NCBI GenBank assembly: GCA_024276995.1 | Contig: JAJRWB010000076.1 | Coordinates: 164 to 64,163, forward strand | Direction of reading: 5' to 3' | From: Candidatus Eiseniibacteriota bacterium | Lineage (GTDB): Bacteria > Orphanbacterota > Orphanbacteria > Orphanbacterales > Orphanbacteraceae | Length of the DNA: 64,000 nucleotides | Shown here: piece by piece, positions 1 through 56,486 of the stretch | How the letters are laid out: the number at the start of each line of letters is the position of its first letter | Position numbering within the stretch: position 1 is the first letter of the stretch | Position numbers and translations under genes: made by a program | The notes under the pieces: model-generated | Told to the model about the DNA's origin: nothing | Databases searched by the model: none | What the model saw: only the letters and a program-made list of their open reading frames with translations

Positions 1-1165
1 CGCCGCGGTGAAGGAACGGGCCGTGGGGGAGGAGGTGCTCCGGAGCATCACCCCCGCCCAGCAACTAGTGAAGGTGGTGCACGCCGAACTCGTCGCCCTA
101 CTCGGCACGAGCGCCGTCCCGCTGAGGCTCGCATCCCAGCCCCCCACGGTGATTCTCCTCGCGGGGCTGCAGGGGAGTGGAAAGACCACCTTCGCGGCGA
201 AGCTCGCCCGACGCTATGGAAAGAAGGGGAAACGTTCCCGCCTCGTGGCGGCGGACGTCTATCGTCCCGCCGCGGCGGACCAGCTCGAACAGCTGGCGAA
301 GGAGGTCGATTGCACGATCACCCGCGGGGAGGAAGGCGAGCTTCCCGAGTCGATCGCCGCGAGGGCGGTCCGGAAGGCGCGCGGTGAACTGGCGGATCTC
401 GTGATCGTCGATACCGCCGGGCGGCTCCACGTGGACGACGAGCTGATGGCGGAGATCGACCGGGTGAACGAGGCGGTGAAACCCCACGAGAAGCTCCTCG
501 TCCTCGACGGGATGACCGGCCAGGACGCGGTAAACGTGGCCGCTGCGTTCGAGGAGCGTATCGGCATCGACGGCTTCGTGCTCACCAAGATGGACGGCGA
601 CGCCCGGGGCGGTGCGGCGCTCTCGATCCGGCACGTCACCGGCAGGCCGGTCAAGTTCGTCGGCACCGGCGAGGGGGTGGACGCCCTCGAGGAGTTTCAT
701 CCCGACCGGATGGCCGGCCGGATCCTCGGCATGGGCGACGTGGTGAGCCTCGTGGAACGGGCGGAACAGAGCGTCGACAGGGAGAAAGCGGTTGAACTCG
801 CTCAGAAACTGCGCCGGCGGGAGTTCACTCTCGACGACTTCGCGGGGCAGCTGAAGAGCTTAAGAAATATGGGCCCCCTCGATCAGATCCTGGGGATGCT
901 CCCCGGCGGGAACCGCCTGCCGAAGGGGGTCACTCCGGACGATCGGGCTCTCAGGAGAACGGAGGCGATCCTCTCCTCCATGACTCGACGCGAGCGTGGA
1001 GAGCCTGTGATTCTCAACGGGAGCAGGCGGAAAAGGATCGCCGCCGGGAGCGGAACTTCGGTTCAGGAGGTGAATCAGCTCCTCAAGCAGTATGATATGA
1101 TCCGAAAGATGATGAAGCGCGCCGGCAGGAAAGGCCGCCGGGGACGATTCCCCGTCGGTATGTGA
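1..1165 (+). CDS. ffh: Signal recognition particle protein Ffh, 5' partial. The N domain is truncated by the window edge and only the G and M domains are present.
   Basis: GLQGSGKTTFAAKLA is the SRP54-type GTPase P-loop. DTAGRLH and TKMDGDARGG motifs are present. The Met-rich M domain follows (MLPGGNRLPKG...MIRKMMKRAG). The P-loop sits only about 55 residues into the ORF, so the true start is upstream of the window. Confidence 0.95.
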   Translation, partial: AAVKERAVGEEVLRSITPAQQLVKVVHAELVALLGTSAVPLRLASQPPTVILLAGLQGSGKTTFAAKLARRYGKKGKRSRLVAADVYRPAAADQLEQLAKEVDCTITRGEEGELPESIAARAVRKARGELADLVIVDTAGRLHVDDELMAEIDRVNEAVKPHEKLLVLDGMTGQDAVNVAAAFEERIGIDGFVLTKMDGDARGGAALSIRHVTGRPVKFVGTGEGVDALEEFHPDRMAGRILGMGDVVSLVERAEQSVDREKAVELAQKLRRREFTLDDFAGQLKSLRNMGPLDQILGMLPGGNRLPKGVTPDDRALRRTEAILSSMTRRERGEPVILNGSRRKRIAAGSGTSVQEVNQLLKQYDMIRKMMKRAGRKGRRGRFPVGM

Positions 1166-1238
1166 AAGCGCCGCTCGGCAGTAGATCGGAACAGGGAGGG
1201 CGCCCCGCAGGGGGCGGCCCCGTGAAGGAGAAGAATTC

Positions 1239-1790
1239 GTGTCCGTAAAGATACGCCTCGCAAGACATGGAAGAAAGAAACGCCCCTTTTACAGGATCGT
1301 CGTCGCCGATTCCCGTTCCCCCAGGGACGGACGGTTCATCGAAGTGCTCGGCACGTACAACCCGATCCAGAACCCGGTACGCGTATCGGTCGATCAGTCG
1401 AAGGCATTCCGCTGGCTCGGGGAAGGCGCCGAGATGAGCACAACGGTGAAGAGCATCTTCCAGAAGTCGGGAGTGCTCTCCCGCTTCGCCGCCGCCCGGG
1501 GCGGAGAAGAGCTGCGCGACGAGGAAAAGAAAGTGGTCCTCGAGATTTTCGGCCATGAACTCGATGGTCACGGTTCGAAGCGGAAGGGGAAGAGGAAGGT
1601 CGCGACCGGACCGGCCGATGAAGCGACTCCTGTCGAGGCCGCGGGCGGGACCGAGTCGCCCGCCGAGCCGGCAGGCGAATCATCGGCGGCGGAAGCGCCG
1701 GCGGAAACCGCCCCGGAAACTCCGGCGGAAGGCGGTGAATCTTCAGCGGAGAGTGCGGCCGGTGATGAAGAGAAATCCTCAGACGAATAG
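1239..1790 (+). CDS. rpsP: 30S ribosomal protein S16 with a roughly 95-aa acidic, Ala/Pro/Glu-rich C-terminal extension.
   Basis: The N-terminus MSVKIRLARHGRKKRPFYRIVVADSRSPRDGRFIE.LGTYNP is canonical S16. It has a GTG start preceded by an AAGGAG ribosome-binding site. It lies between ffh and rimM as in the conserved operon. Confidence 0.9.
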   Translation: MSVKIRLARHGRKKRPFYRIVVADSRSPRDGRFIEVLGTYNPIQNPVRVSVDQSKAFRWLGEGAEMSTTVKSIFQKSGVLSRFAAARGGEELRDEEKKVVLEIFGHELDGHGSKRKGKRKVATGPADEATPVEAAGGTESPAEPAGESSAAEAPAETAPETPAEGGESSAESAAGDEEKSSDE

Positions 1791-1797
1791 GGAACAG

Positions 1798-2028
1798 ATG
1801 AAGGAAATGATCGAACACGTCGCCCGGATGCTGGTGGATGATCCGGAAAAAGTAGTCGTGCAGGAGAAGAAGCGGGAGGATCTTACCGTGTTCGAGCTGC
1901 GCGTGGACAAGCAGGATCTCGGAAGGGTGATCGGAAAGAACGGGCGCACCGCCCACGCGATCCGGTCGCTCCTCGGTATCCTTTCCGCGCGCGCCGGGGA
2001 ACGGGCGCTGCTCGAAATCGTCGAGTAA
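1798..2028 (+). CDS. KH-domain RNA-binding protein of the UPF0109/YlqC family.
   Basis: VFELRVDKQDLGRVIGKNGRTAHAIRSLL is a KH GXXG motif. An AGGGA ribosome-binding site lies 5 nt before the ATG at 1798. The rpsP-KH-rimM-trmD order is conserved. The six-frame ORF extends upstream, but that N-extension overlaps the rpsP tail and was not used. Confidence 0.8.
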   Translation: MKEMIEHVARMLVDDPEKVVVQEKKREDLTVFELRVDKQDLGRVIGKNGRTAHAIRSLLGILSARAGERALLEIVE

Positions 2029-2040
2029 GAGAGCCCTTCG

Positions 2041-2568
2041 ATGAGCACCGGGGATTGGATCGAAATCGGGGTGGTTGGGCGGCCGCACGGTGTGCGCGGC
2101 GAAATCCGGATTCACGTGTCACCCCGTTTTCGCGGGGCCGCCGCGCGACTCGATAGGCTCGCTCTGACTTCCGGCGAAGAGGGGAATTTCACGGCGGCGA
2201 AGATCGAATCGATCCGTGCCCATAACGATCTTTATCTCGTCGTTCTTGATATCGCCCCGGACAGGACGGCCGCCGCGGCGTTCACCGGCGCGGCGATCTT
2301 CGCCCGCGCCCCGGATCTCGAACGTGCAGGGGCGCGCGGACCCTTTCCGGAGCAACTCGTCGGTCTGGCGGTGCGCACCGAATCGGGTGAGCGGGTGGGA
2401 AGCGTCGACCGGATCGACGACTATCCGGCGGGCGATATGCTCGTCGTCCGCGACGGGGAGAAGGAGCATCTCATCCCGTCGGTCCCACAGATCGTCCTTT
2501 CCATCGATGTCGAGAAGGGTGAGGTCGTGATCCGGCCGATCCCCGGCCTTCTCGACCTTTCCTCCTGA
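2041..2568 (+). CDS. rimM: 16S rRNA processing protein RimM.
   Basis: The N-terminus IEIGVVGRPHGVRGEIRIHV is the RimM signature and a PRC barrel region follows at the C-terminus. Operon context supports the call. Confidence 0.9.
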   Translation: MSTGDWIEIGVVGRPHGVRGEIRIHVSPRFRGAAARLDRLALTSGEEGNFTAAKIESIRAHNDLYLVVLDIAPDRTAAAAFTGAAIFARAPDLERAGARGPFPEQLVGLAVRTESGERVGSVDRIDDYPAGDMLVVRDGEKEHLIPSVPQIVLSIDVEKGEVVIRPIPGLLDLSS

Positions 2569-2584
2569 AAAGACGGCGGAGCGG

Positions 2585-3286
2585 GTGATGCGATTCCACG
2601 TGGTAACGATTTTCCCCGAGATCTTTCCCGGTCCTCTCGCGGCGGGGGTGACCGGCAGGGCGATCGAATCGGGCGGAGTGACCATCGTGCCCGTCGACCT
2701 GAGAGAGTTCACCGACGACAAGCACAGAACGGTGGACGACACCCCCTACGGTGGCGGGCCGGGGATGGTGCTCAAGGTGGAGCCTCTCTTCCGCGCGGTG
2801 GAATCGATACGCCGGCGGACCGGCGCCGAAACGCCGGTGATCCTGATGACGCCGCAAGGGGAACCGCTCACCCATCGGATCGTTGCGGAGATCTCCTCGG
2901 GGGAGGAGTGGATTCTCGTCTGCGGGCGATACCGGGGCGTAGACCGGCGTTTCCGAGACGCCCTGGTCGACCGGGAGATCTCGGTGGGCGACTTCGTTCT
3001 TTCCGGCGGGGAGATCCCCGCCCTGGCACTGATCGACGCCGCGATCCGCCTTCTTCCCGGCGCGCTCGGCAACGACGATTCGTCGCGAGAAGACTCCTTC
3101 GCCCGGGAGGGGGGAGGACTCGATGGAGCGTGCTACACCCGGCCGGCGGAATACAGGGGCCGGAAAGTGCCGGGCGTTCTTCTCACGGGAAACCACGGAG
3201 AGATCGCCCGATGGCGCCGGGAGGAGGCGGCAGGGGAGACCCGCCGTCGCCGCCCCGATCTCGCTTTTCCCAAAGATGAAGATTGA
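2585..3286 (+). CDS. trmD: tRNA (guanine37-N1)-methyltransferase TrmD.
   Basis: MRFHVVTIFPEIF...DDTPYGGGPGMVLKVEP...GRYRGVDRR is a typical SPOUT TrmD sequence. Confidence 0.93.
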   Translation: MMRFHVVTIFPEIFPGPLAAGVTGRAIESGGVTIVPVDLREFTDDKHRTVDDTPYGGGPGMVLKVEPLFRAVESIRRRTGAETPVILMTPQGEPLTHRIVAEISSGEEWILVCGRYRGVDRRFRDALVDREISVGDFVLSGGEIPALALIDAAIRLLPGALGNDDSSREDSFAREGGGLDGACYTRPAEYRGRKVPGVLLTGNHGEIARWRREEAAGETRRRRPDLAFPKDED

Positions 3287-3311
3287 CACGGCGAGGGGAC
3301 CGGTCTAGAAT
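3283..3311 (+). promoter_or_regulatory. Near-consensus σ70-type promoter inside the operon, upstream of rplS.
   Basis: TTGACA at 3283-3288, a 17-nt spacer, then TAGAAT at 3306-3311. A GGGGAUCGGUUCCCC hairpin and an AAGGA ribosome-binding site follow in the leader before the rplS ATG at 3357. Confidence 0.5.
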
Positions 3312-3356
3312 GAAATGCTCGTTTGGGGATCGGTTCCCCGGTAAGGATGGTGAATC

Positions 3357-3716
3357 ATGGATATTCTGAGACAACTCGAATCGGACACTTTTCGGTCCGA
3401 CCTGCCCGACTTCGGCCCGGGCGATACGGTGAAAATCGGTGTGCGCGTGCGGGAGGGCGACAAGGAAAGGAAGCAGGTCTTCCAGGGGATCGTGATCCAG
3501 CGGCGCGGCGCGGGCCACTCCGAGACGTTCACGGTGCGGAAGATGAGCGGCGGTATCGGCGTGGAGCGCGTTTTTCCTCTCCAGTCGCCCACGGTGGCGT
3601 CCCTCGAAGTGGTGCGCCGCGGAAAGGTTCGAAGGGCGAAACTCTTCTACCTTCGCGATCGCGTCGGCAAGAAGGCCCGCGTGAAGGAGAAGAGAGGGAG
3701 TGCCCCGAGAGGCTGA
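3357..3716 (+). CDS. rplS: 50S ribosomal protein L19.
   Basis: The ORF spans the full length of typical L19 and follows trmD as in the conserved operon. The sequence [40 protein letters not shown] matches L19. Confidence 0.95.
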
Positions 3717-3828
3717 TTTCTCTCTTCCCGATCGGATCGTGACCCGGCTTGTCGGGGCGATCGATCGCGAGGCGGAGGGACTTCCGCCGCGAAGGCGGCC
3801 GGCCCGGCGGTTTTTTCACCCCCCCTGC

Positions 3829-4476
3829 ATGGAGGATCTTCTCCGGCGGAGGGGGTTTTCTTTTGTGGCGGGCGTGGATGAAGCGGGCCGCGGTCCCCTC
3901 GCCGGACCGGTGGTGGCGGCCGCCGTGGTACTCGATCCGGAGCGGCCGGTCGACGGCATCCGGGATTCGAAGAAGCTTACCCCCGTCGCGCGCCTCCGTC
4001 TTTGCCGCGAAATCCGCTCCGCCGCCCTCGGCGTCGGTATCGGCATGGTGGACGCCGAAGGGATCGACCGGTGGAACATCCTGTGCGCCACCGAAGAGGC
4101 GATGCGCCGCGCCGTGGAAGGTCTCGGCCGTCCGGTCGACTGGGTACTCGTCGACGGCGTTCGGCTCCGCCGTTTCCCCTACCGGCAGATCGCTCTCACC
4201 GGGGGCGACCGGCGCGTCCCGTCGATCGCCGCCGCCTCGATCGTGGCGAAGACGGTCCGCGACCGGCTGGTGGAAAGCTACCACCGTCTCTTTCCCATCT
4301 ATCGATTCGATCGGCACAAAGGTTACCCCACCGGGGAACACGGCCGCGCCGTTCTCCGGCATGGGCCGTCCCCGATTCACAGGAAATCGTTTCACGTACC
4401 GGGTGAGGAGGAGGAGAAGGAATGGGGAGAAACGAAATCGGAAGACGGGGGGAAACGATCGCCGCGGCATACCTGA
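3829..4476 (+). CDS. rnhB: Ribonuclease HII.
   Basis: FVAGVDEAGRGPLAGPVVAAAVVLD is the RNase HII active-site N-terminus. The start was chosen at the Met 14 residues before AGVDE, by analogy to E. coli RnhB. The six-frame ORF extends to 3700 but overlaps rplS. Confidence 0.88.
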   Translation: MEDLLRRRGFSFVAGVDEAGRGPLAGPVVAAAVVLDPERPVDGIRDSKKLTPVARLRLCREIRSAALGVGIGMVDAEGIDRWNILCATEEAMRRAVEGLGRPVDWVLVDGVRLRRFPYRQIALTGGDRRVPSIAAASIVAKTVRDRLVESYHRLFPIYRFDRHKGYPTGEHGRAVLRHGPSPIHRKSFHVPGEEEEKEWGETKSEDGGKRSPRHT

Positions 4477-4975: not shown

Positions 4976-5632
4976 ATGCTTCCTTTTGCAAAGATGACGG
5001 GGACCGTTCTTTTCGCCGGCGCGCTATTGGTGACGGGGTGTTCGAAGAGCGGTACGACCGATCCGGGTGATGGAGGAGGCGGTGGTGAGACGCGCGACGC
5101 CGCGTACTACGTCGACCAGGGATGGGCGAGCTATGACGCCGGCGACTTCATCGACGCCCGATCGCAGTTCGAGAGGGCGCTCAACCTGGATTCCACCTAT
5201 GTGCCGGCCATCTCCGGGGGGGCGTGGACGAGCATCGAACTCGGTTACACCGGGTTGTCGCAAAGTGAATTCGAACGGGCCATCGCGGAGAGCAGCGGTT
5301 ATATCCCCGCCCATGGCGGCCGGGCGGTTACCTCTCACGCCGAGGCGCTCAACATCCCGCAGCTCGCTGCGGAACGCCTTCCGGTCACTATCGAGGCGGC
5401 GTCGAAAGTGCTCGAACTCGGCGGGGAGAACTGGCAGTTCGATCGAATCGAGTCGATCGATGCCCGGCATATGAGAGTACTTTTGGCGCTCACCTATTTC
5501 GAGATGGCGAAATACTCCGATGCCCAGGCGCAGATCGACATCCTCGATCCGGGGAACGGCCTCAACCCGGGCGATCCCGACTACACCCGCCTCCTTCTGA
5601 TCGAGATCGAGAACGAAAGGGACCAGCTTTGA
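4976..5632 (+). CDS. Hypothetical lipoprotein with a TPR-like helical region.
   Basis: A signal peptide with the lipobox LLVTGC is present, and a Gly-rich linker follows. Its stop overlaps the TTG start of the downstream LVIVD-repeat gene, suggesting co-translation. Confidence 0.5.
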   Translation: MLPFAKMTGTVLFAGALLVTGCSKSGTTDPGDGGGGGETRDAAYYVDQGWASYDAGDFIDARSQFERALNLDSTYVPAISGGAWTSIELGYTGLSQSEFERAIAESSGYIPAHGGRAVTSHAEALNIPQLAAERLPVTIEAASKVLELGGENWQFDRIESIDARHMRVLLALTYFEMAKYSDAQAQIDILDPGNGLNPGDPDYTRLLLIEIENERDQL

Positions 5633-8600
5633 ATCGGCGGGGTCCCGGTTTCGCCCTCCTGGCGTATCTCGTCCTCCTCCTTCCCGGGACGGCGGCGTCG
5701 GCGCCGGCCGCGGACGACACGGTGGCCGTGATCGGTATCGATCTTTACAACTCCCCGGTCGGTTCGGCCGAGAAAGACAGCGTCGATTTCGTCCTCTTCC
5801 CGGAAGGACTCACCCTTCTCGATATCGCGTCGGTCCGCTCTCCCGATTCGCTCATGCAGATCCCCCTTCCCGGCTCGGGAGGGGATGTCCGTGTTGTGGG
5901 AAATTACATGTATGTTGCCCGGGGGGAAGCGGGGCTTTTCACATTCGACATCACCGACCCTCGCGCCCCCTTTCCGGTGGACACGTTGGTGCCGGCGGGT
6001 ACGCTCGGCGAAATCGCGACGGGGAACGGCAGGCTCTACGTCCTGGACGGCAGTGGTCTTCTCTCCATCGGAATCGGAACACCGGACGCCCCGGTGTTGC
6101 AGTCCCGCTACGATCTTTCCGGCGACGTGGTGCACGGTCTCGCCGTGCGGGATACGGTCGCGCTGATCGGACTGGAAAGGGCGGGCCTGGTGCTTCTCAA
6201 CGTTTCTCATCCGTCGATGACCTTCCTGTCCGATCTCGAACTCGAGGGGATCGCCGCCCTCGGCGTGAGCGGGAACACCCTTTTCGTCGCCCTCGGCGCG
6301 GAGGGTCTCGTCACGGTCGATCTTGCCGATCCCGCCGCACCCGCCCTCGGTTCCGACGCCCATGTCACGGGCGATACGGTCACCGCTCTCGCGCCGGTCG
6401 ACTCGCTCCTCGTCGCCGCGACGGGGAGTCGCCGCATCAGTCTGTTCAAGGGGGACGATCTCGCCGCGGGATCGATCGTGGATGTGGACGTCGACGGCGC
6501 CGTGAGTCGACTCCTCCCGATCGACGGGGTCGTTCACGCCATGATCAGCGGGAGGGGAATCACCTTCATCGACGTGGTGGAACCGGAGGGGAGCACCTTC
6601 CTTTCGCTTTACGATGCTCCGAACTTGTGGATTCAGTCGGTCACCGCGTCGGGAGACACCCTCTTCGCCCCCGCCGGCGTGGACGGCGTTCAGATTCTGT
6701 CGGTGGCCGATCCGAGGAACATCGATTCCCTCGGCGTCGTATCTACGCCCGAAGGGGGGTTCGCCGCATCGGTCGCTGTTGTCGATTCGTTCCTCTGTGT
6801 GGCCGAGGGGAACAGCGGTATCGGCGTGTACCGTCGCACCGACGGAACGGAGGTCGCGCGGACGGGGATGAGCGGATCCGCGTCCCGGTTGATCATCGTG
6901 GAACAGACGTTGTATGCAACCTATGGATCGGCGGGACTGCTCACCGTGGATCTTTCCGATCCGATGGCGCCGATCGTCACCGATACCCTCGCCCCGTTCG
7001 CGGAGGACGGCGTTTTCCAGAATGTTTCCGCGGGCGGCGGCTTTCTTTTCAGCGCCGAGGGGGCGGGAGGTATCGGCGTGATCGAGATTTCCGATCCATT
7101 GCACCCGGTGACCGTCGGAAGCTGGCAGAGCAGTTCCTTCATCTCGGAAGTGGAGTACGCCTCGGGAACCGTTTTCGCGCTGCTGAGTGGGGAAGGCGTC
7201 GTGTCGATCGATATATCTGTACCCGGAACGCCGGTGGCCGTCGATACGGTCGCGATCGACGCGACCTTCCTTCGTTCCCTTTACATCTCGGGTGATCTCG
7301 CCTACGTCCTCGATTGGCGTGGCCCGTCCGAGCCGGGTCTAGGCTATCTCGTCTCCGTGACCGACCCGGCGGCGTTGCGCCTCTCGGGCACGTTCGAACT
7401 GGAGGGACCTCCCTCGGACGTCCTCTTCGCCGGAACGATCGCCCTCATATCCGAATCCGAGGTGGGCATCGAGGTGTTCACTACATTCGATGATTTCTCC
7501 GCCGTCCCGGTGGGCGATTTCGTGATGAGCTGGAACGTCTCCGCCGTGGCGACGTCGGAGCAGCGGATCCTCACCGCCGACAACGGGGGAACCGTCCGGT
7601 CGTACGTCGTCTTCCAGGGAGACTCTCTCGCGCGGCGCGCCTCGGTGAACCTGGGGGGGACGGTGACCGATCTGGTCACCGATGACCGGCGGGCCTTCGC
7701 TCTTCTCGACGATGGAAGGATCGCGCAGCTCGATGTGTCCAACAGTTTCGCCATCGCCCTCGACCGATGGATCGACGCCGGCGAGTCCCCTTCCGGGCTT
7801 TTCCTCGCCGACTCGCTCCTTTACGTCGCGGCCCGCGGCGAAGGGTTGATGATCTATGACGTATCGCCAGCCGACTCCGCGGTGCGCGTGGGCACGTATC
7901 TCGCCGGAGGGGAGGGGGACGGCGACCTGGGGAGCGCGAAGGCTCGTCGCGTCGTGGTGCAGGACAGTATCGCCTACGTCGTCACCCGCGACGTGACGAA
8001 CACACTCTTTCTGATCGATGTTTCCGATCCGAGTCACCCGCTGTTCCTCTCGACCTTCGGCAACGGGTCGAAAAGGGCGTTCGATGTGGCGGTCTACAAG
8101 GGCTACGCCTATCTCGCCCGCCGGGCGGCGGGAATCTCGGTGGTCGATGTGAGGACGCCGGAAACGCCCTTGGCCACCGCCGATCTCAACACATCGGTCA
8201 ATTCGATACGCCTTCTCGCGGTGGACGACATCCTCTTCGTCGCCGACAGGATGGACGGCGTGTCGTTCGTGAGCATCCGGGACGTGTCGAATATCACCGA
8301 GGTACGCGAGGAAGACACCCCCGGCAACGCCAGGGATCTCGCCCTGTTCGGTACCTATCTTTGCGAGGTGGACGGAAGTTCTTTCCGTGTCTATCTGCAA
8401 AGCTTCGCCAACGTCGACGACATCCCGCCGACATACGGCATCGGCGTCCTCCAGAGCACCTTCCTGAACGCCTACCTCGACTTCATCATCGTCGGTTCCG
8501 AAGTGCTCGCCGAGAGGCCGGAGATCCGTTTCGAGATGGGAGATATCGATTCGCTTCTCACCACTCTCAACGTGGACGTACAGAGGAATACGTTTCACGC

Positions 8601-9375
8601 CACGTACAGGCTCACCTCCGTCGGCACGGGAAAGGTGACCGTCAACGGGGAGGACCTGTCGGGGAACAAGTCGGAGGCGAGCAAGAATTTCTCCGTATCG
8701 ATCGCCCGCGGAGCGAAGGGGGGGACGATCACAGCCTCTTCCGCGAAGCTGATGATCACCGTGCCTCCCGGGGCGACGTCGAAAGATACCTATATCACCC
8801 TCGTGCCGGTGGCGCTCGATGAACTGCCTCCGGGCGACGCGCCCGCCGTCGACGTGGCCGGCGGGCCGTTTCGCCTTTCTCTGGGCGCGGCCGAAGGGGG
8901 CGCGCGACTCGCCTGGTCCGGCTTCGACGATCCGCCGGCGGGAAAAGAGCCGCGCCTCCACCTTCTCGGGAGTTCGACCTGGACGCCTGTGGAAGGTGTT
9001 TTCGACGCCGCGACCGGGACGCTTCGGGCGACCCTTCCCGGGTCGTCCACGTTTCTCGTGTCGTACGGTGCCGCGACCGGGACGCTCCCGGTCCCCTTGG
9101 CGATCCGGCTCGACCGGAACAGGCCGAATCCATTCAACCCGGTCACGACGATCGACTTCCACCTGACGCGTCGCGCGGTGGTGCGTCTCGAGATCTATGA
9201 CATCACCGGAAGGATCGTCCGCCGCCTCGTGGACGGCACCGTCCCCGCCGGCACGACGAGCGTCGTCTGGGACGGACGCGACCGATCCGGCCGCCCGGCG
9301 CAAAGCGGCGTTTACTTCTCCCGCCTTCGCGTGGAAAACCAGAGCCGTACGGGAAAGCTGATCTTGATCCGATAG
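5629..9375 (+). CDS. Secreted LVIVD-repeat β-propeller protein (1248 aa) with a Por/T9SS-type C-terminal sorting domain.
   Basis: A signal peptide is followed by at least seven LVIVD-type repeats (GLFTFDITDPRAP, GLVLLNVSHPSMT, GLVTVDLADPAAP, GLLTVDLSDPMAP, GIGVIEISDPLHP, LFLIDVSDPSHP, ISVVDVRTPETP). The C-terminus is NRPNPFNPVTTIDFHL...LEIYDITGRIVRRLVDG...WDGRDRSGRPAQSGVYFSRLRVENQSRTGKLILIR. The TTG start has an AAAGGGA ribosome-binding site. Confidence 0.75.
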   Translation: MNRRGPGFALLAYLVLLLPGTAASAPAADDTVAVIGIDLYNSPVGSAEKDSVDFVLFPEGLTLLDIASVRSPDSLMQIPLPGSGGDVRVVGNYMYVARGEAGLFTFDITDPRAPFPVDTLVPAGTLGEIATGNGRLYVLDGSGLLSIGIGTPDAPVLQSRYDLSGDVVHGLAVRDTVALIGLERAGLVLLNVSHPSMTFLSDLELEGIAALGVSGNTLFVALGAEGLVTVDLADPAAPALGSDAHVTGDTVTALAPVDSLLVAATGSRRISLFKGDDLAAGSIVDVDVDGAVSRLLPIDGVVHAMISGRGITFIDVVEPEGSTFLSLYDAPNLWIQSVTASGDTLFAPAGVDGVQILSVADPRNIDSLGVVSTPEGGFAASVAVVDSFLCVAEGNSGIGVYRRTDGTEVARTGMSGSASRLIIVEQTLYATYGSAGLLTVDLSDPMAPIVTDTLAPFAEDGVFQNVSAGGGFLFSAEGAGGIGVIEISDPLHPVTVGSWQSSSFISEVEYASGTVFALLSGEGVVSIDISVPGTPVAVDTVAIDATFLRSLYISGDLAYVLDWRGPSEPGLGYLVSVTDPAALRLSGTFELEGPPSDVLFAGTIALISESEVGIEVFTTFDDFSAVPVGDFVMSWNVSAVATSEQRILTADNGGTVRSYVVFQGDSLARRASVNLGGTVTDLVTDDRRAFALLDDGRIAQLDVSNSFAIALDRWIDAGESPSGLFLADSLLYVAARGEGLMIYDVSPADSAVRVGTYLAGGEGDGDLGSAKARRVVVQDSIAYVVTRDVTNTLFLIDVSDPSHPLFLSTFGNGSKRAFDVAVYKGYAYLARRAAGISVVDVRTPETPLATADLNTSVNSIRLLAVDDILFVADRMDGVSFVSIRDVSNITEVREEDTPGNARDLALFGTYLCEVDGSSFRVYLQSFANVDDIPPTYGIGVLQSTFLNAYLDFIIVGSEVLAERPEIRFEMGDIDSLLTTLNVDVQRNTFHATYRLTSVGTGKVTVNGEDLSGNKSEASKNFSVSIARGAKGGTITASSAKLMITVPPGATSKDTYITLVPVALDELPPGDAPAVDVAGGPFRLSLGAAEGGARLAWSGFDDPPAGKEPRLHLLGSSTWTPVEGVFDAATGTLRATLPGSSTFLVSYGAATGTLPVPLAIRLDRNRPNPFNPVTTIDFHLTRRAVVRLEIYDITGRIVRRLVDGTVPAGTTSVVWDGRDRSGRPAQSGVYFSRLRVENQSRTGKLILIR

Positions 9376-9440
9376 ATAACAGTCCGGTGAAGGGCTTTTC
9401 GTCCGGCGGCGCCCCGCCGTGGGAGATAGGAAAAGCGAAC

Positions 9441-9471
9441 GGGCGCGGCCGGTGGAGTCCCGGCCGCGCCC
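9441..9471. terminator. Bidirectional intrinsic terminator hairpin between the convergent LVIVD gene and the Cyc2-like gene.
   Basis: A perfect 12-bp GC stem GGGCGCGGCCGG / CCGGCCGCGCCC with a 7-nt loop. On the minus strand it is followed by GUUCGCUUUUCC. Confidence 0.6.
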
Positions 9472-9497
9472 GTGTCATTGCAAAGATACGTTCCCGG

Positions 9498-10778
9498 CTA
9501 CTGGAGCCAGATGAAACGGACCTGGAAGTTGTCGTCCTTGACGTCGTCCAAGGAGCCGCCCCGTTTCTGCTGGACGTGCTTGAACTCGGTGATCACCTGG
9601 AAGCCATCGTTGAACGGATGGTTCACGAAGAGCGTGGCGCCCCACTTCTCGTTGTCGTCGACATCGGAAGACGGGTCGTACCAATCGTAGCGGCCGCCCA
9701 CCGTGGTGATCTCGGTCGGATGGAAATCGGCCTCGCCGAAGAATCCCTGGCTGGTGAACGTCTCGGTGTTGGCGTCCGCATCGGTCGGATAGTCGTCCTG
9801 GCCCCAGGCGAATCCGCCCTGCGCCTCGAACTTCGGCGTAAGAGCGTACGAGCCGTAGGCGGCGACCCGCTGGAAGCCGTTCTCGTAGCTCGTCGCGACG
9901 GCGTTCTTCGCGAGAGTATTCGGAAGATCCATCTTCCCGTAGTAGTAGTAGAGGGACAGTCCCGAGCCGGCGTCATCGAGCGCATGGTTGACGAAGAGCT
10001 GGATATCCTTCGAGTCCTGGTTCTCGGAGCCCGCAGGCTTCTGGAGATGACCGCCGGCGGCCGGGAAGGCCTTCCCGTCGGCCTCGTCGTAGTAGATCCC
10101 ATTGAACACGGTGGCGGAGAACGAAGTGTGGTTCTTCACGTACGCCAGTTCGACGCCGGCCTGGTCGAATCCCCACATCTTGAAGTAGGTCGACTCGGTG
10201 CCGTTGTTCGATGTCGAGCCCTGGAAGAAGGGACGGCTGAGCGAAAACGGACGATCGGAAGCACCATACCCTTCGAAGGGATGGAAAATACCGACCCGCC
10301 CGGAAAACCACTCATTCTCGGTCCCGCGGGTGTAGCGAAAATAGGCATTCTCGATTTCGACGAAGTCCTCATTCGCCATCGACATCTCGACGAGAGAACC
10401 GTAGTTCTTTCCGAACGAGCCGGAAAGGGGATAGACGGTCACCTCGTGAAGAGTGAGCTGGTTCGAAGTCGTCGCATCGGTGTCCCCGCCCATGTCCCGG
10501 CGCTTCACGTCGTACCGTGCCTGGACGCGCGCCGAGTAGACGTCGGCGTAGTTGAAGTCGCCGAGTTCCTTACCGATGTCGCTCGGGTCGCGGAACCCGG
10601 CCTTGCGGTAATTGAACCCGTACTCGTTCAGCCGCGGGACGGTCGTGTGGCAAAGGGCGCAGTCGGCCTTCTCCTTGCGCGCAAACGAGGGAATCGACCA
10701 CGCGTTTCGGGGAGTGAATACCCCGAGCGTGAGCAGCACCAGGAACATCGATCCTGCCAGTTTCCACCTGGTTTTCAT
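9498..10778 (-). CDS. Outer-membrane β-barrel protein with an N-terminal monoheme c-type cytochrome motif. It is a candidate Cyc2-like fused cytochrome-porin.
   Basis: The signal peptide is MKTRWKLAGSMFLVLLTLGVFTPRNAWS. It is followed by SFARKEKADCALCHTTVPRLNEYGF, with a single CxxCH. Roughly 380 aa of alternating hydrophobic β-strand pattern follow. A strong GGAGG ribosome-binding site lies 8 nt before the ATG. Confidence 0.6.
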   Translation of the reverse strand: MKTRWKLAGSMFLVLLTLGVFTPRNAWSIPSFARKEKADCALCHTTVPRLNEYGFNYRKAGFRDPSDIGKELGDFNYADVYSARVQARYDVKRRDMGGDTDATTSNQLTLHEVTVYPLSGSFGKNYGSLVEMSMANEDFVEIENAYFRYTRGTENEWFSGRVGIFHPFEGYGASDRPFSLSRPFFQGSTSNNGTESTYFKMWGFDQAGVELAYVKNHTSFSATVFNGIYYDEADGKAFPAAGGHLQKPAGSENQDSKDIQLFVNHALDDAGSGLSLYYYYGKMDLPNTLAKNAVATSYENGFQRVAAYGSYALTPKFEAQGGFAWGQDDYPTDADANTETFTSQGFFGEADFHPTEITTVGGRYDWYDPSSDVDDNEKWGATLFVNHPFNDGFQVITEFKHVQQKRGGSLDDVKDDNFQVRFIWLQ

Positions 10779-11276
10779 CTAAGGTACCTCCTTGCCCGAA
10801 AGAGTGCGGGCCTTTCTGGAAGACAGGGAGACGTCGGCCCGGCCGACCGTGGATTCCGGGAAAACCCGCCAGCACCCCCGATCGTTGGGACCCTGTCGGG
10901 CCGGACGCTCCCACTCCGATGATGGACGGTTCCATCCATCTACTTAACTATCTCGAATCAAGTTAGGATATTGCCGACGTATGTCAAGGTAAAAGCATCG
11001 CTAATCCTGGATACTTTCCTCCCGGAAATAGCTAATATACTGCAATAAGATAATCCCCCCGCGGCGGGCGCCCATTTTTTCCCGCATTGTGTGAAGGCAA
11101 GGCGATGGTGCATAATGCCCGGGCGGGTCGACGCGCCCCTCACGAGGAACGCCGGTGATCGATGCCGGGGGGCGGGATCGGACGTCCGGGCCGATTCGCT
11201 CGGAGGGAGATCACCCCTTACCCGCCGTTCCCCGACCCGGGGGACGGAGCCGAGCCTTTCGCAGACAGGTACACGA

Positions 11277-13712
11277 ATGATTCCTTGCTTCGCCGCGCTT
11301 TTCCTTATCTCCTTCAGCACGCTCCTGGTGGAACTCGCCATGACGAGGGTGCTCGACGTGATTCTCACGTCGAACATGTCGTATCTCATTCTCACGTCGG
11401 CGATCTTCGCCTTCGGACTCGCCGGCATTGTGAATACACTCGGATCGGCGGGGAAGGAGAGGTCGGGCCTTCCCACGGCACGCATCGCCTTGCTCTTCTC
11501 TTTGTCGATCGCGGTGATCCTCCCCGCCTTCAACGTGATCCCCTTCGATTTCGATGATCTCACCGACGATCTCGTGAAGCAGCTGATCTCCTTCGGCCTG
11601 ATGTACGTCGTTCTCTTCCTCCCGTTCTTCCTTTCCGGGCTGATGATCATCCGGATCTTCGCCGCCTTCCCATCCCGGATCCAGGTGCTCTATTTCTTCG
11701 ATCTCGTCGGCGCCGCCGTCGGATGTGTCGCGGTGGTTCCCTTCGTCCCTCTCATCGGACCGGGCGGAATCCTCTTTCTCGCTTCCGCGCTGGCGATGGT
11801 CACCGCCGCCGTGTTCACACGGCGGAAGATTCGTGCCGTCGCGATGGCGGCGGCGGCCGTTCTTCTCGCGATCCTCCCCTTCCAGAAGCGGCCCGCGTAC
11901 TACGACTTCCACGAGCATACCGACAAGAGGGGGGTCCGCTACGCGCGGGAGCATTCGAGAATCGAGCGGACCGTGTGGGATCCGGTTTCGAAAATCGATG
12001 TTCTCGAATACGACGAAACGAGGAAGCATATCGCCTACGACGGGGGAACCCAGAGCAGTACGATCACCCGGTTCGACGGCAACCTCGAGAAGCTGCGCTC
12101 GCGGATCGATCGCTATATCGACGCCGATACGAAAGATTCCTCCTCGGGCGACAATATCATCCGAAGGCATTTCTGGTTCGCCGGCGTGCTGGCGGCCCAC
12201 TACCTGAAACGGGACAGCGGCCAGGAAGTGCTGATCATCGGGAGCGCGGGGGGACAGGAGACGAAGGCCGCCCTCGTCTACGGCGCGAAGAGCGTCGACG
12301 CGGTGGAGATGGTCGGCGCGGTGATGGACCTCGGCCGGCGACGGTACGCCGACTACAACGGGAATATCTTCAACAATCCCCGCGTACATCCCCGGGTCGA
12401 CGAGGGGCGGAGCTTCCTGCGCTCGTCGGGGAAGAAGTACGACATCATCCAGATCTTCAGCAACCACACGTCGTCGAGCATCGCCTCGGGCACCGGTGCG
12501 GTGGCCACGACGTACCTGCAGACTTCGGACGCGTACAGGGAATACTTCAGCCACCTGAAGGAGGACGGCATCCTGCAGGTGAATCACCACATCTTCCCCA
12601 AGATGATCACCACCGCCGCGCTCGGTTGGAAATCGATGGGGCGAACGGGTTTCAGGGACCACGTGGTGGTGTACGTGAGGAAGGACAGGAATGACACGCT
12701 CCCCACGTTCCTGGTGAAGATGACACCGTGGACCGCTTCGGAGATGTCGGATTTGGCGAGGCTGTTCGAGGGGGACCGCCCGGCGGATTCCGACCGGTTC
12801 GAGTTGGTTGAGAACCCTCTCGATCAGGACGGAAGCTATCTCTCCGATGAGTTCTACAGCGGCGACTTCCCGAGGGAATTGGCGGCGACGATTCCGTACC
12901 GCGTGTCGCCGTCCACCGATGACAGGCCGTATTTCAACACTCTTCGCAAGAGGTTCGGCGTCATGAGCGAGGACGGAAGGAACTTCGTAGACCACTCGAC
13001 GGCGATGATCCTCAACTCGCAGCTGAGAAAGGGGATTCCCATGGACGTGGCCCACCTCTTTCTCCTCGGCGCGGTCTCCGTCGTTGCGGCGTTCGCATTC
13101 ATCTTCGTCCCCTTGTTCGGTTCGAAGGCGGGGAGGACCGGGTGGGAGAGGAAGAACAGCTCGCTCGCCTATTTCTCGTGTCTCGGGGCGGGGTTCATCA
13201 TCTTGGAGGTCGTCTATATCCAGTTGTTCATGCGGTTCATCGGTCCCCCGTTGCACACCTTCTCGACGGTCGTGTTCTCCCTCCTTTTCGCGGCGGGAAC
13301 GGGGAGCTATTTTTCGAAGGGACTCCGCGTCGATTCGCCCGGCCGGTGGCCCTGGCCGTTCCTGGCGATCATCGGGTACGGTCTTCTCCTCCTTCTCCTC
13401 GGTCCGGGCCTGTTCGACCTTTTCCTCGGCGCGGACCGGGGGGTGCGCATAGGGATATCGTTCCTTCTCCTATTCCCGATCGGCTTCTTCCTCGGGATGC
13501 CTTTTCCCATGGGGATCCTCTTTCTCGAGAAGAAACCGGCCGGGGCGATCGCCTGGGCGTGGGGGATGAACGGACTGTTCACCGTGGTCGGCGGGCTGGC
13601 GTGCATGGGTGTTTCCATCTTCTACGGATTCCGGGCCACCCTCCTCATGGCGCTGGCGATCTACGCCCTCGCCCTCGTCCTGTACTCCCGGCTGAGAGGC
13701 TCAGGCGCCTGA
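11277..13712 (+). CDS. Fused spermidine-synthase-like (polyamine aminopropyltransferase family) membrane protein.
   Basis: The N-terminal polytopic module has LVELAMTRVL...SY. The central region VLIIGSAGGQE...VDAVEMVGAVMDLGRRRY...DEGRSF...KYDIIQIF is a spermidine-synthase/methyltransferase fold. A second membrane module sits at the C-terminus. The start was chosen at the Met of MIPCFAALFL; the ORF-track N-extension was not used. Confidence 0.72.
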   Translation: MIPCFAALFLISFSTLLVELAMTRVLDVILTSNMSYLILTSAIFAFGLAGIVNTLGSAGKERSGLPTARIALLFSLSIAVILPAFNVIPFDFDDLTDDLVKQLISFGLMYVVLFLPFFLSGLMIIRIFAAFPSRIQVLYFFDLVGAAVGCVAVVPFVPLIGPGGILFLASALAMVTAAVFTRRKIRAVAMAAAAVLLAILPFQKRPAYYDFHEHTDKRGVRYAREHSRIERTVWDPVSKIDVLEYDETRKHIAYDGGTQSSTITRFDGNLEKLRSRIDRYIDADTKDSSSGDNIIRRHFWFAGVLAAHYLKRDSGQEVLIIGSAGGQETKAALVYGAKSVDAVEMVGAVMDLGRRRYADYNGNIFNNPRVHPRVDEGRSFLRSSGKKYDIIQIFSNHTSSSIASGTGAVATTYLQTSDAYREYFSHLKEDGILQVNHHIFPKMITTAALGWKSMGRTGFRDHVVVYVRKDRNDTLPTFLVKMTPWTASEMSDLARLFEGDRPADSDRFELVENPLDQDGSYLSDEFYSGDFPRELAATIPYRVSPSTDDRPYFNTLRKRFGVMSEDGRNFVDHSTAMILNSQLRKGIPMDVAHLFLLGAVSVVAAFAFIFVPLFGSKAGRTGWERKNSSLAYFSCLGAGFIILEVVYIQLFMRFIGPPLHTFSTVVFSLLFAAGTGSYFSKGLRVDSPGRWPWPFLAIIGYGLLLLLLGPGLFDLFLGADRGVRIGISFLLLFPIGFFLGMPFPMGILFLEKKPAGAIAWAWGMNGLFTVVGGLACMGVSIFYGFRATLLMALAIYALALVLYSRLRGSGA

Positions 13713-25929: not shown

Positions 25930-26955
25930 ATGGATGAGTTCAGAAAAATGCATCGCGGACAGTTCATCGACACCCTTGCCGAAGGGGACCGGGTGCTCGA
26001 GTATTACCGTGTCGCCCGGAAGAGCGTGCGACAGACCCGCAGGGGCGATCTCTATCTCGATCTCACCCTCGCCGACAGGACGGGGATGATCGCAGCGCGT
26101 CTTTTCGGCGATCGTGACGGTGTTCACGACAGGGTCACCTCGTATGCGGCGCAATTCAAGCCGGGGGATGTGATCCGTGTGGACGGCAGGGTCGACCGGT
26201 TCCAGGGGAAGCTGCAGCTCCTCATCGACCGCCTTCGGGTAAGCGAGAACGGCGAGGTCGACGGCGCGCTCTTCGAAAAGTCGAGCGACCGACCCTTCGA
26301 GGAGATGGAGAGGGAACTCGCCGAGAAAATCGAAGCAATCGAGAATCGATATCTGAAGAAACTCGTGGAGTCGGTTTTCGGTTCCGGCGAAATCAAGGAG
26401 CGGTTTCTCGTCGCCCCGGCGGCGACGCGGATTCATCACGCCTACCGGCACGGCTTGCTCGAACACACCCTATCGATGATTGCCGGCGCAGAGGCGCTAC
26501 ACCCGCTCTACCCGGAACTCGATCTCGATTTGCTGCGTGCGGCGATTCTCTTCCACGACGTCGGGAAAACGGCGGAACTGGGTGAGAAGGCGGGTGACGA
26601 CTACACCGTCGAAGGGACGCTTGAAGGACATATCTACATCGGCGCCCGCTGGGTGGACGAGGCGGCGGGAAAGATCGACGGTTTTCCAGGCGAATTGCGC
26701 CTCCAGTTGATCCACCTGATTCTCAGCCACCACGGGGAGAGGGAATACGGTGCTCCGGTGGTGCCCGCCACGAGGGAGGCCGTCTTCCTTCATCAGCTCG
26801 ACAATCTCGACGCCAAGCTCGCGAACGTCCGCCAGACGATCGCCGCCGACAGGAACAGCCAATCGCCTTTCACCGATCCCGCCGCATCGGGTCCGATCTA
26901 CCGCCGTTACTACAAGGGCGCGTCTTCCGGTTCGAAAGATCATGGAGGGGCGTGA
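25930..26955 (+). CDS. yhaM: YhaM-like 3'-5' exonuclease (OB-fold plus HD domain).
   Basis: An N-terminal OB-fold region is present. The HD domain shows HAYRHGLLEHTLSM...ILFHDVGKTAEL...LILSHHGEREYGAPVVP. Confidence 0.75.
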   Translation: MDEFRKMHRGQFIDTLAEGDRVLEYYRVARKSVRQTRRGDLYLDLTLADRTGMIAARLFGDRDGVHDRVTSYAAQFKPGDVIRVDGRVDRFQGKLQLLIDRLRVSENGEVDGALFEKSSDRPFEEMERELAEKIEAIENRYLKKLVESVFGSGEIKERFLVAPAATRIHHAYRHGLLEHTLSMIAGAEALHPLYPELDLDLLRAAILFHDVGKTAELGEKAGDDYTVEGTLEGHIYIGARWVDEAAGKIDGFPGELRLQLIHLILSHHGEREYGAPVVPATREAVFLHQLDNLDAKLANVRQTIAADRNSQSPFTDPAASGPIYRRYYKGASSGSKDHGGA

Positions 26956-32900: not shown

Positions 32901-33264
32901 GCTCCTGAGGGGGAAGGTCGATCTCCTCGCGCGCTCCGCCGACGGCTGGCACGTGATCGACTACAAGACCGACCGCGCCGCCCCGGAGGAGATCGCCGCC
33001 CGTCACGCGACGGCGCTCGCTCTCTACAGACTCGCCCTCTCTCGTCTTGCGGGGGAACGGATCGCCGTGCGCGCGTCGATCGTGGCAGTGAGGGCCCGCC
33101 TCCTCCTGCCTGTGCCGGAGGAGGCCGACCTCGAGGCGCTCGATTCCCTCCGACGATTCGATCGGGCGGTCAGGGCGGAGCGGTTCGATCCCCCGCCTGC
33201 GCCGCCGTGCGCTTCTTGCGAATACCGCTTCGCATGCAGGAAGAGGCGCTCCAACGGCCGCTAG
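29923..33264 (+). CDS. addA: AddA-like UvrD/Rep-family helicase with a C-terminal PD-(D/E)xK nuclease domain.
   Basis: LTAGAGSGKTRVLTERY, VTFTEKAAGEMRGRI, LLLDECQDTNALQ, IHGAKGMQFP and the nuclease motif GKVDLLARSADGWHVIDYKTD are all present. The GTG start overlaps the addB stop by 4 nt. Confidence 0.8.
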   Translation: MSAPKGGERLTGVQERAVRAGDRDLWLTAGAGSGKTRVLTERYLHLHLARSIPLQQILAVTFTEKAAGEMRGRIARRLREAGRRDSLRDLPHAPIGTIDSFCLSLAREYADRGGIDPSLRVLDPVEAAEWEEEVWADVLDTWWAKRRRDSILLLGALPWNTGLRHVGGIDPAPLLSLVRRIRTAGVDPRSVSFEVDGEALVSRIWEEAPPLLTRVRRLIDAGQTKKTTEKLEQLLRLGEGASLSGEEKARLAGRVREAVSLRVGAAARETVREGIALLDRLRLAGNEIALGRARAFLGELLLDFHRRFSSRKERAAAADFLDIEEIAARLLADRDVRRDVRGRRRYLLLDECQDTNALQLDIVRRLRSPGRFLAVGDAKQSIYRFRDADVTAFVEMGRSLGPTADRLDLSENFRSRGAILDWVNRFFPLIWKENDGMGVPFEPLESARDDFPAKAEPSVEFLRVIGNGGAGGAREEEAALLAERLAALDREGIDDLGYGDMAILFRSAAGMAVFERALRERGIPAVVAVGRGFFQSREVADLLTGLRLVDDCRSDIDVAAALRSPLASVGDDDIARLLLERGEEPLIARLGKREALSSLTDEGAARAGRFGRLLRQLRELRGLLPAGRLLEMLAAETGFLDSLLTSRGGRRRYANSVKLIEIARDIDRRGDLSLPETIAALQRYRVTRLREPESATDEERFAVRLMTIHGAKGMQFPLVAVADIGRRSAPSRRPFLFRRGEVVGIRGRHAETYTYRELLEREKDEEKAEEARLFYVAVTRAERHLIVSGSRTGRSAAWLDLLEKSGVPFDTPGGGIHCGVPVNIIDPSAAAPRRTGRRLTLSRFLADTSRRAAKADGPKVEKIIRRLTAVLPAASPAAGRTVTAVDLFRRCAEKYRLSRLFLPPGEMGEVSPEEGGGRESGLGGAEEGTLFHSAMEAAMRRRASGPPAEESPALSPKIAAWRDAVLALPAMKKILAGADVDAERSFAVIIEGALLRGKVDLLARSADGWHVIDYKTDRAAPEEIAARHATALALYRLALSRLAGERIAVRASIVAVRARLLLPVPEEADLEALDSLRRFDRAVRAERFDPPPAPPCASCEYRFACRKRRSNGR

Positions 33265-56162: not shown

Positions 56163-56486
56163 CGAAGGGCGGCTTCGGTCTCGGCGATCTCCTGGAAGAA
56201 CTCGATACGGTGTTTCGCCTTCACGAGCCGCGTCCCGACTGGCCTTTCTGAAGCGGCGCACCGGCCGTATGCAACAGGTGTCCGATGCGGCTCACCGAGT
56301 TCCTTGCCGGCCACGAAGTGACCGGCCATCCCCCACGGACTTGACATCTCCTTCCCGTTTCGTCCCGCCCGCTCCGTCTCGAACCGCTTTCCCTTCCTGA
56401 AGAAACGGTGATTCCCGACGATGCCCACTTTCCGGCATGTCTTTTGCTGACTCGTGCGTCCGGCCACGAAACGGGAGGAGGCGGCC

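Follow-up and report, generated by a model that had tools for sequence, protein, structure and literature searches.

A Cyc2-family fused cytochrome-porin as a candidate outer-membrane electron conduit in an uncultured Candidatus Eiseniibacteriota bacterium

Cyc2 proteins combine a single c-type haem and a porin in one polypeptide. As defined by Keffer et al. in 2021, they have a signal peptide, one CxxCH motif with AxPxFAR[Q/K][T/Y] upstream and PxL downstream, a length of at least 365 residues and a 16-strand porin resembling OprO/OprP, the OprO structure 4RJW being one of the two templates reported for Cyc2 (PMC8406198). The Acidithiobacillus ferrooxidans protein (UniProt B7JAQ7) carries one CAACH behind a signal peptide of 31 residues and matches no Pfam family (bioRxiv 10.1101/262287), and Edman degradation of the 50-kDa outer-membrane form gave LPSFARQ as the N-terminus (PMC3084935). 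Fe(II) oxidation is the only activity demonstrated biochemically for Cyc2, in one representative from each of three clusters; in divergent clusters, and in organisms not known as iron oxidizers, Keffer et al. regard the function as unverified and other functions as possible (PMC8406198). The window studied here (the whole stretch of DNA analysed, that is, 64,000 nucleotides from positions 164 to 64,163 of contig JAJRWB010000076.1, assembly GCA_024276995.1, of a Candidatus Eiseniibacteriota bacterium) contains on its minus strand, at 9498-10778, a gene whose product is very probably a member of the Cyc2 superfamily. It has the architecture, the conserved haem motif, the porin fold and the homology to Cyc2-type proteins.

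The 426-residue open reading frame (ORF) and the N-terminus quoted for it in the initial annotation were both confirmed by the ORF list. The protein begins with MKTRWKLAGSMFLVLLTLGVFTPRNAWS, corresponding to the signal peptide, and continues into the mature part with IPSFARKEKADCALCHTTVPRLNEYGF. A basic n-region (K2, R4 and K6) and a hydrophobic core precede a predicted cleavage site at A26-W-S28; in the structural model described below, the signal-peptide helix is followed by a low-confidence stretch from residue 21 to 27. The predicted mature N-terminus, IPSFARK, is in the same register as the Edman N-terminus of the A. ferrooxidans protein and is identical to it at five of seven positions, which supports the predicted point of cleavage. 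The stretch with the haem motif follows directly on the signal peptide, just as the initial annotation had it, and the motif is indeed the only CxxCH of the protein, its two cysteines, C40 and C43, being the sole cysteines of the mature chain. When both strands of the 64 kb were scanned in any frame for TGY-N6-TGY-CAY, this site (10647-10661) was the one match. Shuffled sequences yield 0.81 matches on average, so that a single match is not significant alone, and the case for a functional CxxCH is made by its conservation and not by its mere occurrence.

Among the defining features of Cyc2, the signal peptide, the single CxxCH, the PxL, the length and, in the model, the OprO/OprP-like porin are all found in the window protein. 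The N-terminal signature, which the initial annotation gave as conserved in Cyc2, agrees in part. The PxFAR[Q/K] core (here P-x-F-A-R-K), its published spacing of three residues ahead of CxxCH, the CxxCH itself and the PxL match the 2021 definition, whereas the strict form AxPxFAR[Q/K][T/Y] is departed from at two positions, with S28 in place of A and E36 in place of [T/Y]. The first change is trivial: S28 occupies position -1 of the predicted signal-peptidase site, at which serine is as acceptable as alanine. The second is common to the closest relatives (FARKEG in homologues P0002-P0005), tyrosine occupying position 36 in 47 of the 61 diverse homologues aligned below; a literal screen for PxFAR[Q/K][T/Y] misses the window protein at this one position.

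Conservation of the haem region was followed over a wide range of homologues. A search of 5.8 billion proteins (E ≤ 1e-3) returned 194, each about 400-440 residues long and all of them unnamed or labelled "hypothetical", the best non-self match being 69% identical. In an exhaustive profile search over 1.84 billion cluster representatives, 3468 were matched at E ≤ 1e-3, 725 at ≤ 1e-10 and 142 at ≤ 1e-30. Two alignments were used, one of 32 close homologues (A1) and one of 61 diverse homologues reaching down to 21% identity (A3). R34, C40, C43, H44, P48, L50, G54, R58, G61 and R63 are invariant throughout the first set; C40, C43, H44, L50, G54, R63 and G163 are invariant throughout the second, in which R34 and P48 are more than 90% conserved. 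The CxxCH, whose absence from close homologues was to have counted against the initial annotation, is thus kept in every sequence of both sets (32 of 32 and 61 of 61). Nearly every full-length match from the profile search carries A-x-P-x-[FW]-[AGS]-R-[KRQ]-Y-x3-CxxCH-x3(-5)-P-x-L, and the family consensus, A-M-P-N-F-A-R-K-Y-x3-CxxCH-x3-P-R-L-N, is an exact fit to the published Cyc2 signature. Sequence searches of Pfam, NCBIfam and the PDB with the window protein gave no match even at E ≤ 10. A profile search of the PDB pointed to a HORMA-domain protein over the signal-peptide and haem region (E 0.0013, 21 bits); the match is weak and we take it as chance.

Homology to Cyc2-type proteins of Proteobacteria was traced through plasmids. 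A tblastn search of 72,556 plasmids (7.3 Gb) matched WP_165050654.1 of Methylocystis sp. MJC1 (E 1e-3) and an ORF on the megaplasmid of Ralstonia syzygii R24 (E 3e-3). The Ralstonia megaplasmid matches are un-annotated ORFs, the R. syzygii copy (L036:3983-5338) lying where PLSDB has no annotated feature. Both N-termini, AVPSFARQTGQPCATCHTAFPELT in Methylocystis and NPLFARQTGLNCASCHTIYPELT in Ralstonia, contain the strict Cyc2 motif with the same spacing, and it is by this strict motif that the proteobacterial comparators are classed as Cyc2-type. With hhalign, the profile of the window family (32 sequences) aligned to the Methylocystis and Ralstonia proteins at 97.4% (E 1.6e-11), the 61-sequence profile to a 25-sequence proteobacterial profile at 99.1% (E 5.4e-19, 132 columns), and the window protein alone to the latter profile at 95.7%; pairwise BLASTP reached 3e-10. 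The aligned part consists of the haem module with its linker (residues 29-78) and of strands one to three. Beyond these the barrel did not align, which agrees with the literature, where the porin part is described as poorly conserved in Cyc2. Ralstonia has been named among the genera rich in Cyc2 homologues (PMC8406198), and a similarity-network study ties the A. ferrooxidans protein to clusters of Burkholderiales and Hyphomicrobiales (PMC10654088). The Methylocystis protein has more than 6500 relatives, and no Acidithiobacillus was found among the 120 matches listed. Its gene lies on plasmid NZ_CP107559.1 (L035, 3878-7648), upstream of three genes for c-type cytochromes and not far from an IS66 transposase.

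The porin part was modelled with AlphaFold2 from the 32-sequence alignment (mean predicted local distance difference test score, pLDDT, 88.2; predicted template modelling score, pTM, 0.84). In the model, the signal-peptide helix is succeeded by two short helices flanking the haem site, by coil up to residue 81 and by strands from 82 to 425, which bears out the stretch of about 380 residues of β-strand pattern read from the sequence in the initial annotation. DSSP assigns 17 strand segments, or 16 if residues 218-239 are counted as a single kinked strand; with this count, the gaps alternate between short turns of 2-6 residues and loops, the third loop being 40 residues long. From the DSSP string and the parity of turns and loops we infer a 16-strand porin topology in which the first strand would start from the periplasmic side. 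The best Foldseek matches in the PDB are 16-strand porins (PorB 7de8, 2por, OmpT and OprO 4rjw/4rjx; E about 1e-11, target-normalized TM score 0.52-0.71). A 16-strand barrel, which the initial annotation had proposed looking for by structure prediction, is therefore what these top matches indicate, the count of 16 itself being deduced from DSSP. The long third loop opens with HPFEGYGASDRP, a block that is invariant in all 32 close homologues but not in the wider Cyc2 relatives. It might shape a constriction of the pore, touch the haem module or bind metal. We considered its first residue, H166, as a distal haem ligand common to this family and proteobacterial Cyc2, and rejected it: the histidine is present in only 38 of the 61 diverse homologues and the equivalent proteobacterial residue is not conserved. 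Taken together, the motif, its conservation, the porin model and the profile-profile homology at 99.1% uphold the initial identification of a Cyc2 architecture.

What the protein does is less certain. The fullest proposal, an outer-membrane Cyc2-family conduit that oxidizes Fe(II), seems to us quite possible, if short of probable. The polypeptide would comprise four sections: the signal peptide (1-28), a haem c module some 50 residues long, a linker of roughly 20 residues and a 16-strand barrel of the OprO/PorB kind. C40 and C43 would bind haem covalently, with H44 as proximal ligand and P48-x-L50 packed against the haem. The haem module, beginning at the mature N-terminus IPSFARK, would be located at or inside the periplasmic mouth of the pore, since the barrel is predicted to begin on the periplasmic side. 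A small dissolved cation, most likely Fe2+, would enter the pore from outside the cell and donate one electron to the haem, which would hand it inward; the acceptors would be soluble c-type cytochromes of the periplasm whose genes lie elsewhere in the genome. That the substrate should be dissolved and enter the pore follows from the one-haem-in-a-pore design. The mature chain is strongly acidic (net charge about -21), and this composition fits a cation such as Fe2+ as well as the negatively charged tunnel described for Cyc2 models. Also in favour of the proposal are the status of Fe(II) oxidation as the one activity demonstrated for the family and the cytochrome c genes that adjoin the Methylocystis gene and, in 13 of the 34 related loci described below, the homologue.

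Fe(II) oxidation by the window protein is nevertheless plausible but unproven, and several observations weigh against it. The initial annotation had taken the gene to point to Fe(II) oxidation or another extracellular redox capacity, and the step to Fe(II) oxidation is not supported as written. This step is weak: the divergent clusters are those whose function Keffer et al. consider most uncertain, and such clusters are reported to hold homologues from the Fibrobacteres-Chlorobi-Bacteroidetes (FCB) group (PMC8406198; PMC9769843); Cyc2 homologues in metagenome-assembled genomes (MAGs) of this group were reported mostly with Leptospirillum Cyt572 and Tenderia (PMC9769843). The carriers of close homologues are mostly presumed heterotrophs, including the cultured Geothrix mesophila. 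No partner cytochrome, oxidase or maturation gene lies within the 64 kb: comparison of about 55 ORFs with Pfam, together with a CxxCH scan, revealed no cytochrome, oxidase, Rieske, Ccm or CcsBA gene, and the absence of ccm and other cytochrome genes noted at the outset stands. On long contigs, the three relatives nearest to the window gene (60-67% identity) are solitary too, with unrelated neighbours. No conserved sixth haem ligand was found in the 61-sequence set, and E36 reads as a real departure from the [T/Y] of the signature. Lastly, the conserved neighbourhood described below, of Rieske and cytochrome b genes, fits an outward flow of electrons at least as well as an inward one.

Related loci provide most of the functional hints. 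Using the HPFEGYGASDRP motif pattern on one genome per species, we retrieved 34 loci with members of this clade, in MAGs labelled Ca. Eisenbacteria, Gemmatimonadota, Vicinamibacterales, Blastocatellia, Thermoanaerobaculia, Ignavibacteria, Bacteroidota, Kapaibacterium, Kryptoniota, Zixibacteria, Myxococcales, Kofleriaceae and Deltaproteobacteria. The nearest matches by identity were from a MAG (57%), Ca. Eisenbacteria (53%) and Gemmatimonadota (51%), and G. mesophila is the one named, cultured species to contribute a homologue (47-48% identity; GCA_022808835.1, L038). No neighbour of the window gene recurs in any of the 34 loci or beside the three closest relatives. In nine loci (L003, L009, L014, L015, L016, L018, L032, L033 and L034) the homologue belongs to a same-strand cluster with a Rieske protein, cytochrome b and a small cytochrome c (for example L009:250-4129, L016:6-3268 and L032:10001-13948), the cytochrome b often being fused to one or two c-haem domains. 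Such a set, Rieske protein, cytochrome b, cytochrome c and Cyc2-like protein, would form a complete chain from quinol to the outer membrane; we did not find this arrangement described in the literature searched. In four further loci a small or four-haem cytochrome c is encoded right next to it, bringing to 13 of 34 those with a cytochrome c beside the homologue. Tandem or close Cyc2-like paralogues occur in four loci (L003:9833-12476, L015:5198-9494, L018:3684-6668 and L034:9899-16849). Multihaem cytochromes near the Cyc2-like gene, including four-haem c554/MtrC-like and ten-haem proteins, are encoded at L012:5834-6487, L024:11210-11821, L019:4392-5075, L017:15542-16561 and L034:6273-7307.

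These neighbourhoods make outward electron flow a serious rival to Fe(II) oxidation, although we regard it as somewhat unlikely. The architecture would be the same, with electrons moving outward or in both directions, from quinol through Rieske protein and cytochrome b to a periplasmic cytochrome c and on to the Cyc2-like haem. In an organoheterotroph this haem would pass them to acceptors such as soluble Fe(III) chelates or humic quinones. The nine Rieske/cytochrome b clusters would provide exactly such a feed, and at L012 and L024 a four-haem c554/MtrC-like cytochrome is encoded directly downstream of the homologue. The genus of the sole named cultured carrier, Geothrix, is listed among reducers of Fe(III) and humic substances. 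Precedent comes from A. ferrooxidans itself, whose Cyc2 was proposed to act as terminal Fe3+ reductase, fed by bc1, in anaerobic growth (PMC7735108) and whose chain was called reversible by Jiang et al. On the other hand, no purified Cyc2 has been shown biochemically to reduce Fe(III) or quinones, Rieske and cytochrome b neighbours are missing from the window gene and from its nearest relatives, and one haem in a narrow pore reaches dissolved acceptors only.

It is also worth asking whether the haem serves respiration at all. A haem-bearing porin might take part in redox-assisted iron uptake, the redox state of iron being changed as it crosses the outer membrane, or in redox sensing, or in the detoxification of reactive species at the cell surface, and Keffer et al. 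deem additional functions of Cyc2 possible (PMC8406198). The solitary, monocistronic setting of the window gene and the variable neighbours of its relatives are typical of porin genes. In G. mesophila (L038:5851-9317) and in a Vicinamibacterales MAG (L004:7821-11245), an OmpR-type response regulator and a histidine kinase are encoded directly upstream on the same strand, and at L012:125-5837 the upstream pair is a PAS kinase and a sigma-54 activator. Judged by gene order, these regulators hint at conditional expression, and the OmpR-type system suggests this over membership of a core respiratory operon. However, no FeoAB, TonB-dependent receptors or Fur boxes were seen adjoining the gene in the window or in the related loci examined, and the conserved neighbours, where there are any, are respiratory (cytochrome c, Rieske protein and cytochrome b). 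We consider a non-respiratory role doubtful. Least credible, and in our view very improbable, is an ordinary anion- or phosphate-type porin of the OprO/OprP kind whose N-terminal CxxCH would receive no haem in the cell: the barrel does resemble OprO, a single homologue, P0084, carries a precomputed match to the phosphate-selective porin profile PF07396 (Porin_O_P) and the window is without maturation genes, but the window protein matches no Pfam family at E ≤ 10, Porin_O_P included, its net charge argues against an anion channel, and CxxCH, R34, P48 and L50 are conserved over thousands of homologues from many phyla, as is not expected of a non-functional motif.

The features of the gene are collected in the table. 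The terminator-like hairpin is situated between the Cyc2-like gene and a convergent neighbour, 5629-9375 (+), whose product is a large LVIVD-repeat protein ending in a C-terminal domain of the type IX secretion system (T9SS) type. On the other side, 11091-13712 (+) is divergent, the two genes starting back to back; its product is an 873-residue polytopic membrane protein with a central spermidine-synthase-like domain. With a convergent gene at its 3' end and a divergent gene at its 5' end, the Cyc2-like gene must be monocistronic, and it appears from the DNA to be a solitary transcription unit with its own ribosome-binding site and terminator. No homologue of the 11091-13712 product adjoins Cyc2-like genes in other loci.

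Features of the Cyc2-like gene and its product. Positions are those of the window.
Feature	Position	Strand	Basis
Cyc2-family fused monohaem cytochrome c-porin, complete coding sequence, 426 residues and stop	9498..10778	-	ORF list
Shine-Dalgarno-like AGGAGG, 8 nt 5' of ATG	10787..10792	-	direct sequence reading
Sec signal peptide (predicted), residues 1-28	10695..10778	-	sequence inspection and model helix 2-19
Cyc2 signature S-I-P-S-F-A-R-K-E, residues 28-36	10671..10697	-	motif of Keffer 2021
Small cytochrome module and linker (predicted), residues 29-78, helices 30-36 and 52-59	10545..10694	-	AlphaFold2
Haem c attachment site (predicted) C40-A-L-C43-H44	10647..10661	-	CxxCH scan and invariance in 61/61
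PxL brace P48-R-L50, from the fourth residue past CxxCH (H44-T-T-V-P48-R-L50)	10629..10637	-	
β-barrel porin domain (predicted), residues 82-425	9504..10535	-	AlphaFold2 and Foldseek
Long L3-like loop, residues 166-205	10164..10283	-	clade-invariant opening motif
L3 motif HPFEGYGASDRP, H166 to P177	10248-10283	-	alignment A1
Intrinsic-terminator-like hairpin, 14 bp (13 G-C), T-rich tail, 25 nt past stop	9439..9473	-	

The window as a whole has a G+C content of 64%, and spurious ORFs on the opposite strand are common. Its housekeeping genes include ffh, a KH-domain gene, rimM, trmD, rplS and rnhB, in this order in a block at 8-4476 (+), together with genes for a RecD2-type helicase, an AddAB-like pair and thioredoxin. 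The pair, at 26750-33264 (+), consists of adjacent long genes for a PD-(D/E)XK nuclease protein and a UvrD-type helicase-nuclease and resembles AddAB/RexAB. Several T9SS-cargo-like proteins and glycosyltransferases are also encoded. Large secreted proteins with C-terminal sorting domains of the FlgD-Ig or Por_Secre_tail type are found at 5629-9375 (+), 33338-35821 (-) and 42146-43885 (-); they are the LVIVD-repeat protein, a PQQ-like β-propeller protein and one other, and their sorting domains are consistent with a T9SS-bearing organism of the FCB group. A 1567-residue protein with an M6 (immune inhibitor A) peptidase domain and FG-GAP repeats is encoded at 56454-61157 (+).

The family, the motif and the architecture have already been published (PMC8406198), and homologues of Cyc2 from Eisenbacteria, Gemmatimonadota, Acidobacteriota and Bacteroidota were published in 2022 (PMC9769843); their occurrence in these and other heterotrophs of the FCB group is likewise in the literature (PMC9769843; PMC6344600). 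A Cyc2-like protein from such a lineage is accordingly no novelty. The finding is the correct annotation of a protein left "hypothetical" by public pipelines, an expected annotation and not a discovery. Its interest derives from the use made of the family. Most Cyc2 homologues in the databases, the window copy included, belong to uncultured heterotroph-like lineages, and no other marker gene is used as widely as cyc2 to detect microbial Fe(II) oxidation, FeGenie being one example. If such homologues oxidize iron, the process is far more widespread than cultures would lead one to think; if they work outward or serve another purpose, marker-gene surveys overcount iron oxidizers. With the window copy the family gains a well-supported member whose architecture is clean and whose model is confident.

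The clade of about 420-residue proteins marked by HPFEGYGASDRP is carried by Eisenbacteria, Gemmatimonadota, Acidobacteriota, Ignavibacteria/Bacteroidota, Myxococcota and relatives. It is tempting, if speculative and on balance unlikely to be right, to see in it a functionally distinct branch of Cyc2 that provides the outer-membrane exit of a dedicated chain of quinol, Rieske protein/cytochrome b and cytochrome c in organoheterotrophs respiring soluble Fe(III) or humic substances. Solitary copies like the window gene would then use periplasmic cytochromes encoded elsewhere. If true, such a branch would represent a minimal, one-haem route for extracellular respiration. The recurrence of a clade with an invariant L3 motif beside Rieske/cytochrome b operons in several phyla, and its presence in a cultured Geothrix, offer a handle on the direction of the conduit.

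Comparison with known systems places the window protein closest to the described Cyc2s. A. ferrooxidans Cyc2 (B7JAQ7), Mariprofundus ferrooxydans Cyc2PV-1 and Leptospirillum Cyt572 are like it in having a signal peptide, a single CxxCH, PxFAR[Q/K] at the mature start and PxL, as well as a porin for which OprO/OprP serve as models, with some 16 strands, a length of about 400-490 residues and no Pfam family. It differs from them by E36 in place of T/Y, by the clade-specific L3 motif, by a gene not adjoining cyc1, rusticyanin or oxidase genes, and by its host, an uncultured high-GC bacterium with T9SS-type cargo that is not a known iron oxidizer. The proteobacterial Cyc2-type proteins have the identical FAR[Q/K]x-x3-CxxCH-x3-PxL spacing; they are, however, only about 20-26% identical and longer (450-585 residues), and their motif, FARQTGQPC...FPELTPFGRRFKLGGYT, contrasts with FARKY...PRLNExGFxFRAAGFR in the window family. 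The three cytochrome c genes downstream of the Methylocystis copy recall the cyc2-cyc1 arrangement, whereas the window gene is followed by none. Porins of 16 strands such as OprO/OprP and PorB share the barrel fold, the size and the long third loop, but show no detectable sequence similarity and have no N-terminal haem module; moreover, OprO and OprP are anion channels, whereas the window protein is strongly acidic. The MtrAB, MtoAB and PioAB systems likewise use a barrel and c-type haem to move electrons over the outer membrane. A separate multihaem cytochrome of the MtrAB/MtoAB type was not found in the 64-kb window, which has no other CxxCH. While those systems are built of two or three proteins, with a 26-strand barrel enclosing a decahaem wire, the window protein would do with one polypeptide, one haem motif and a barrel of 16-strand size.

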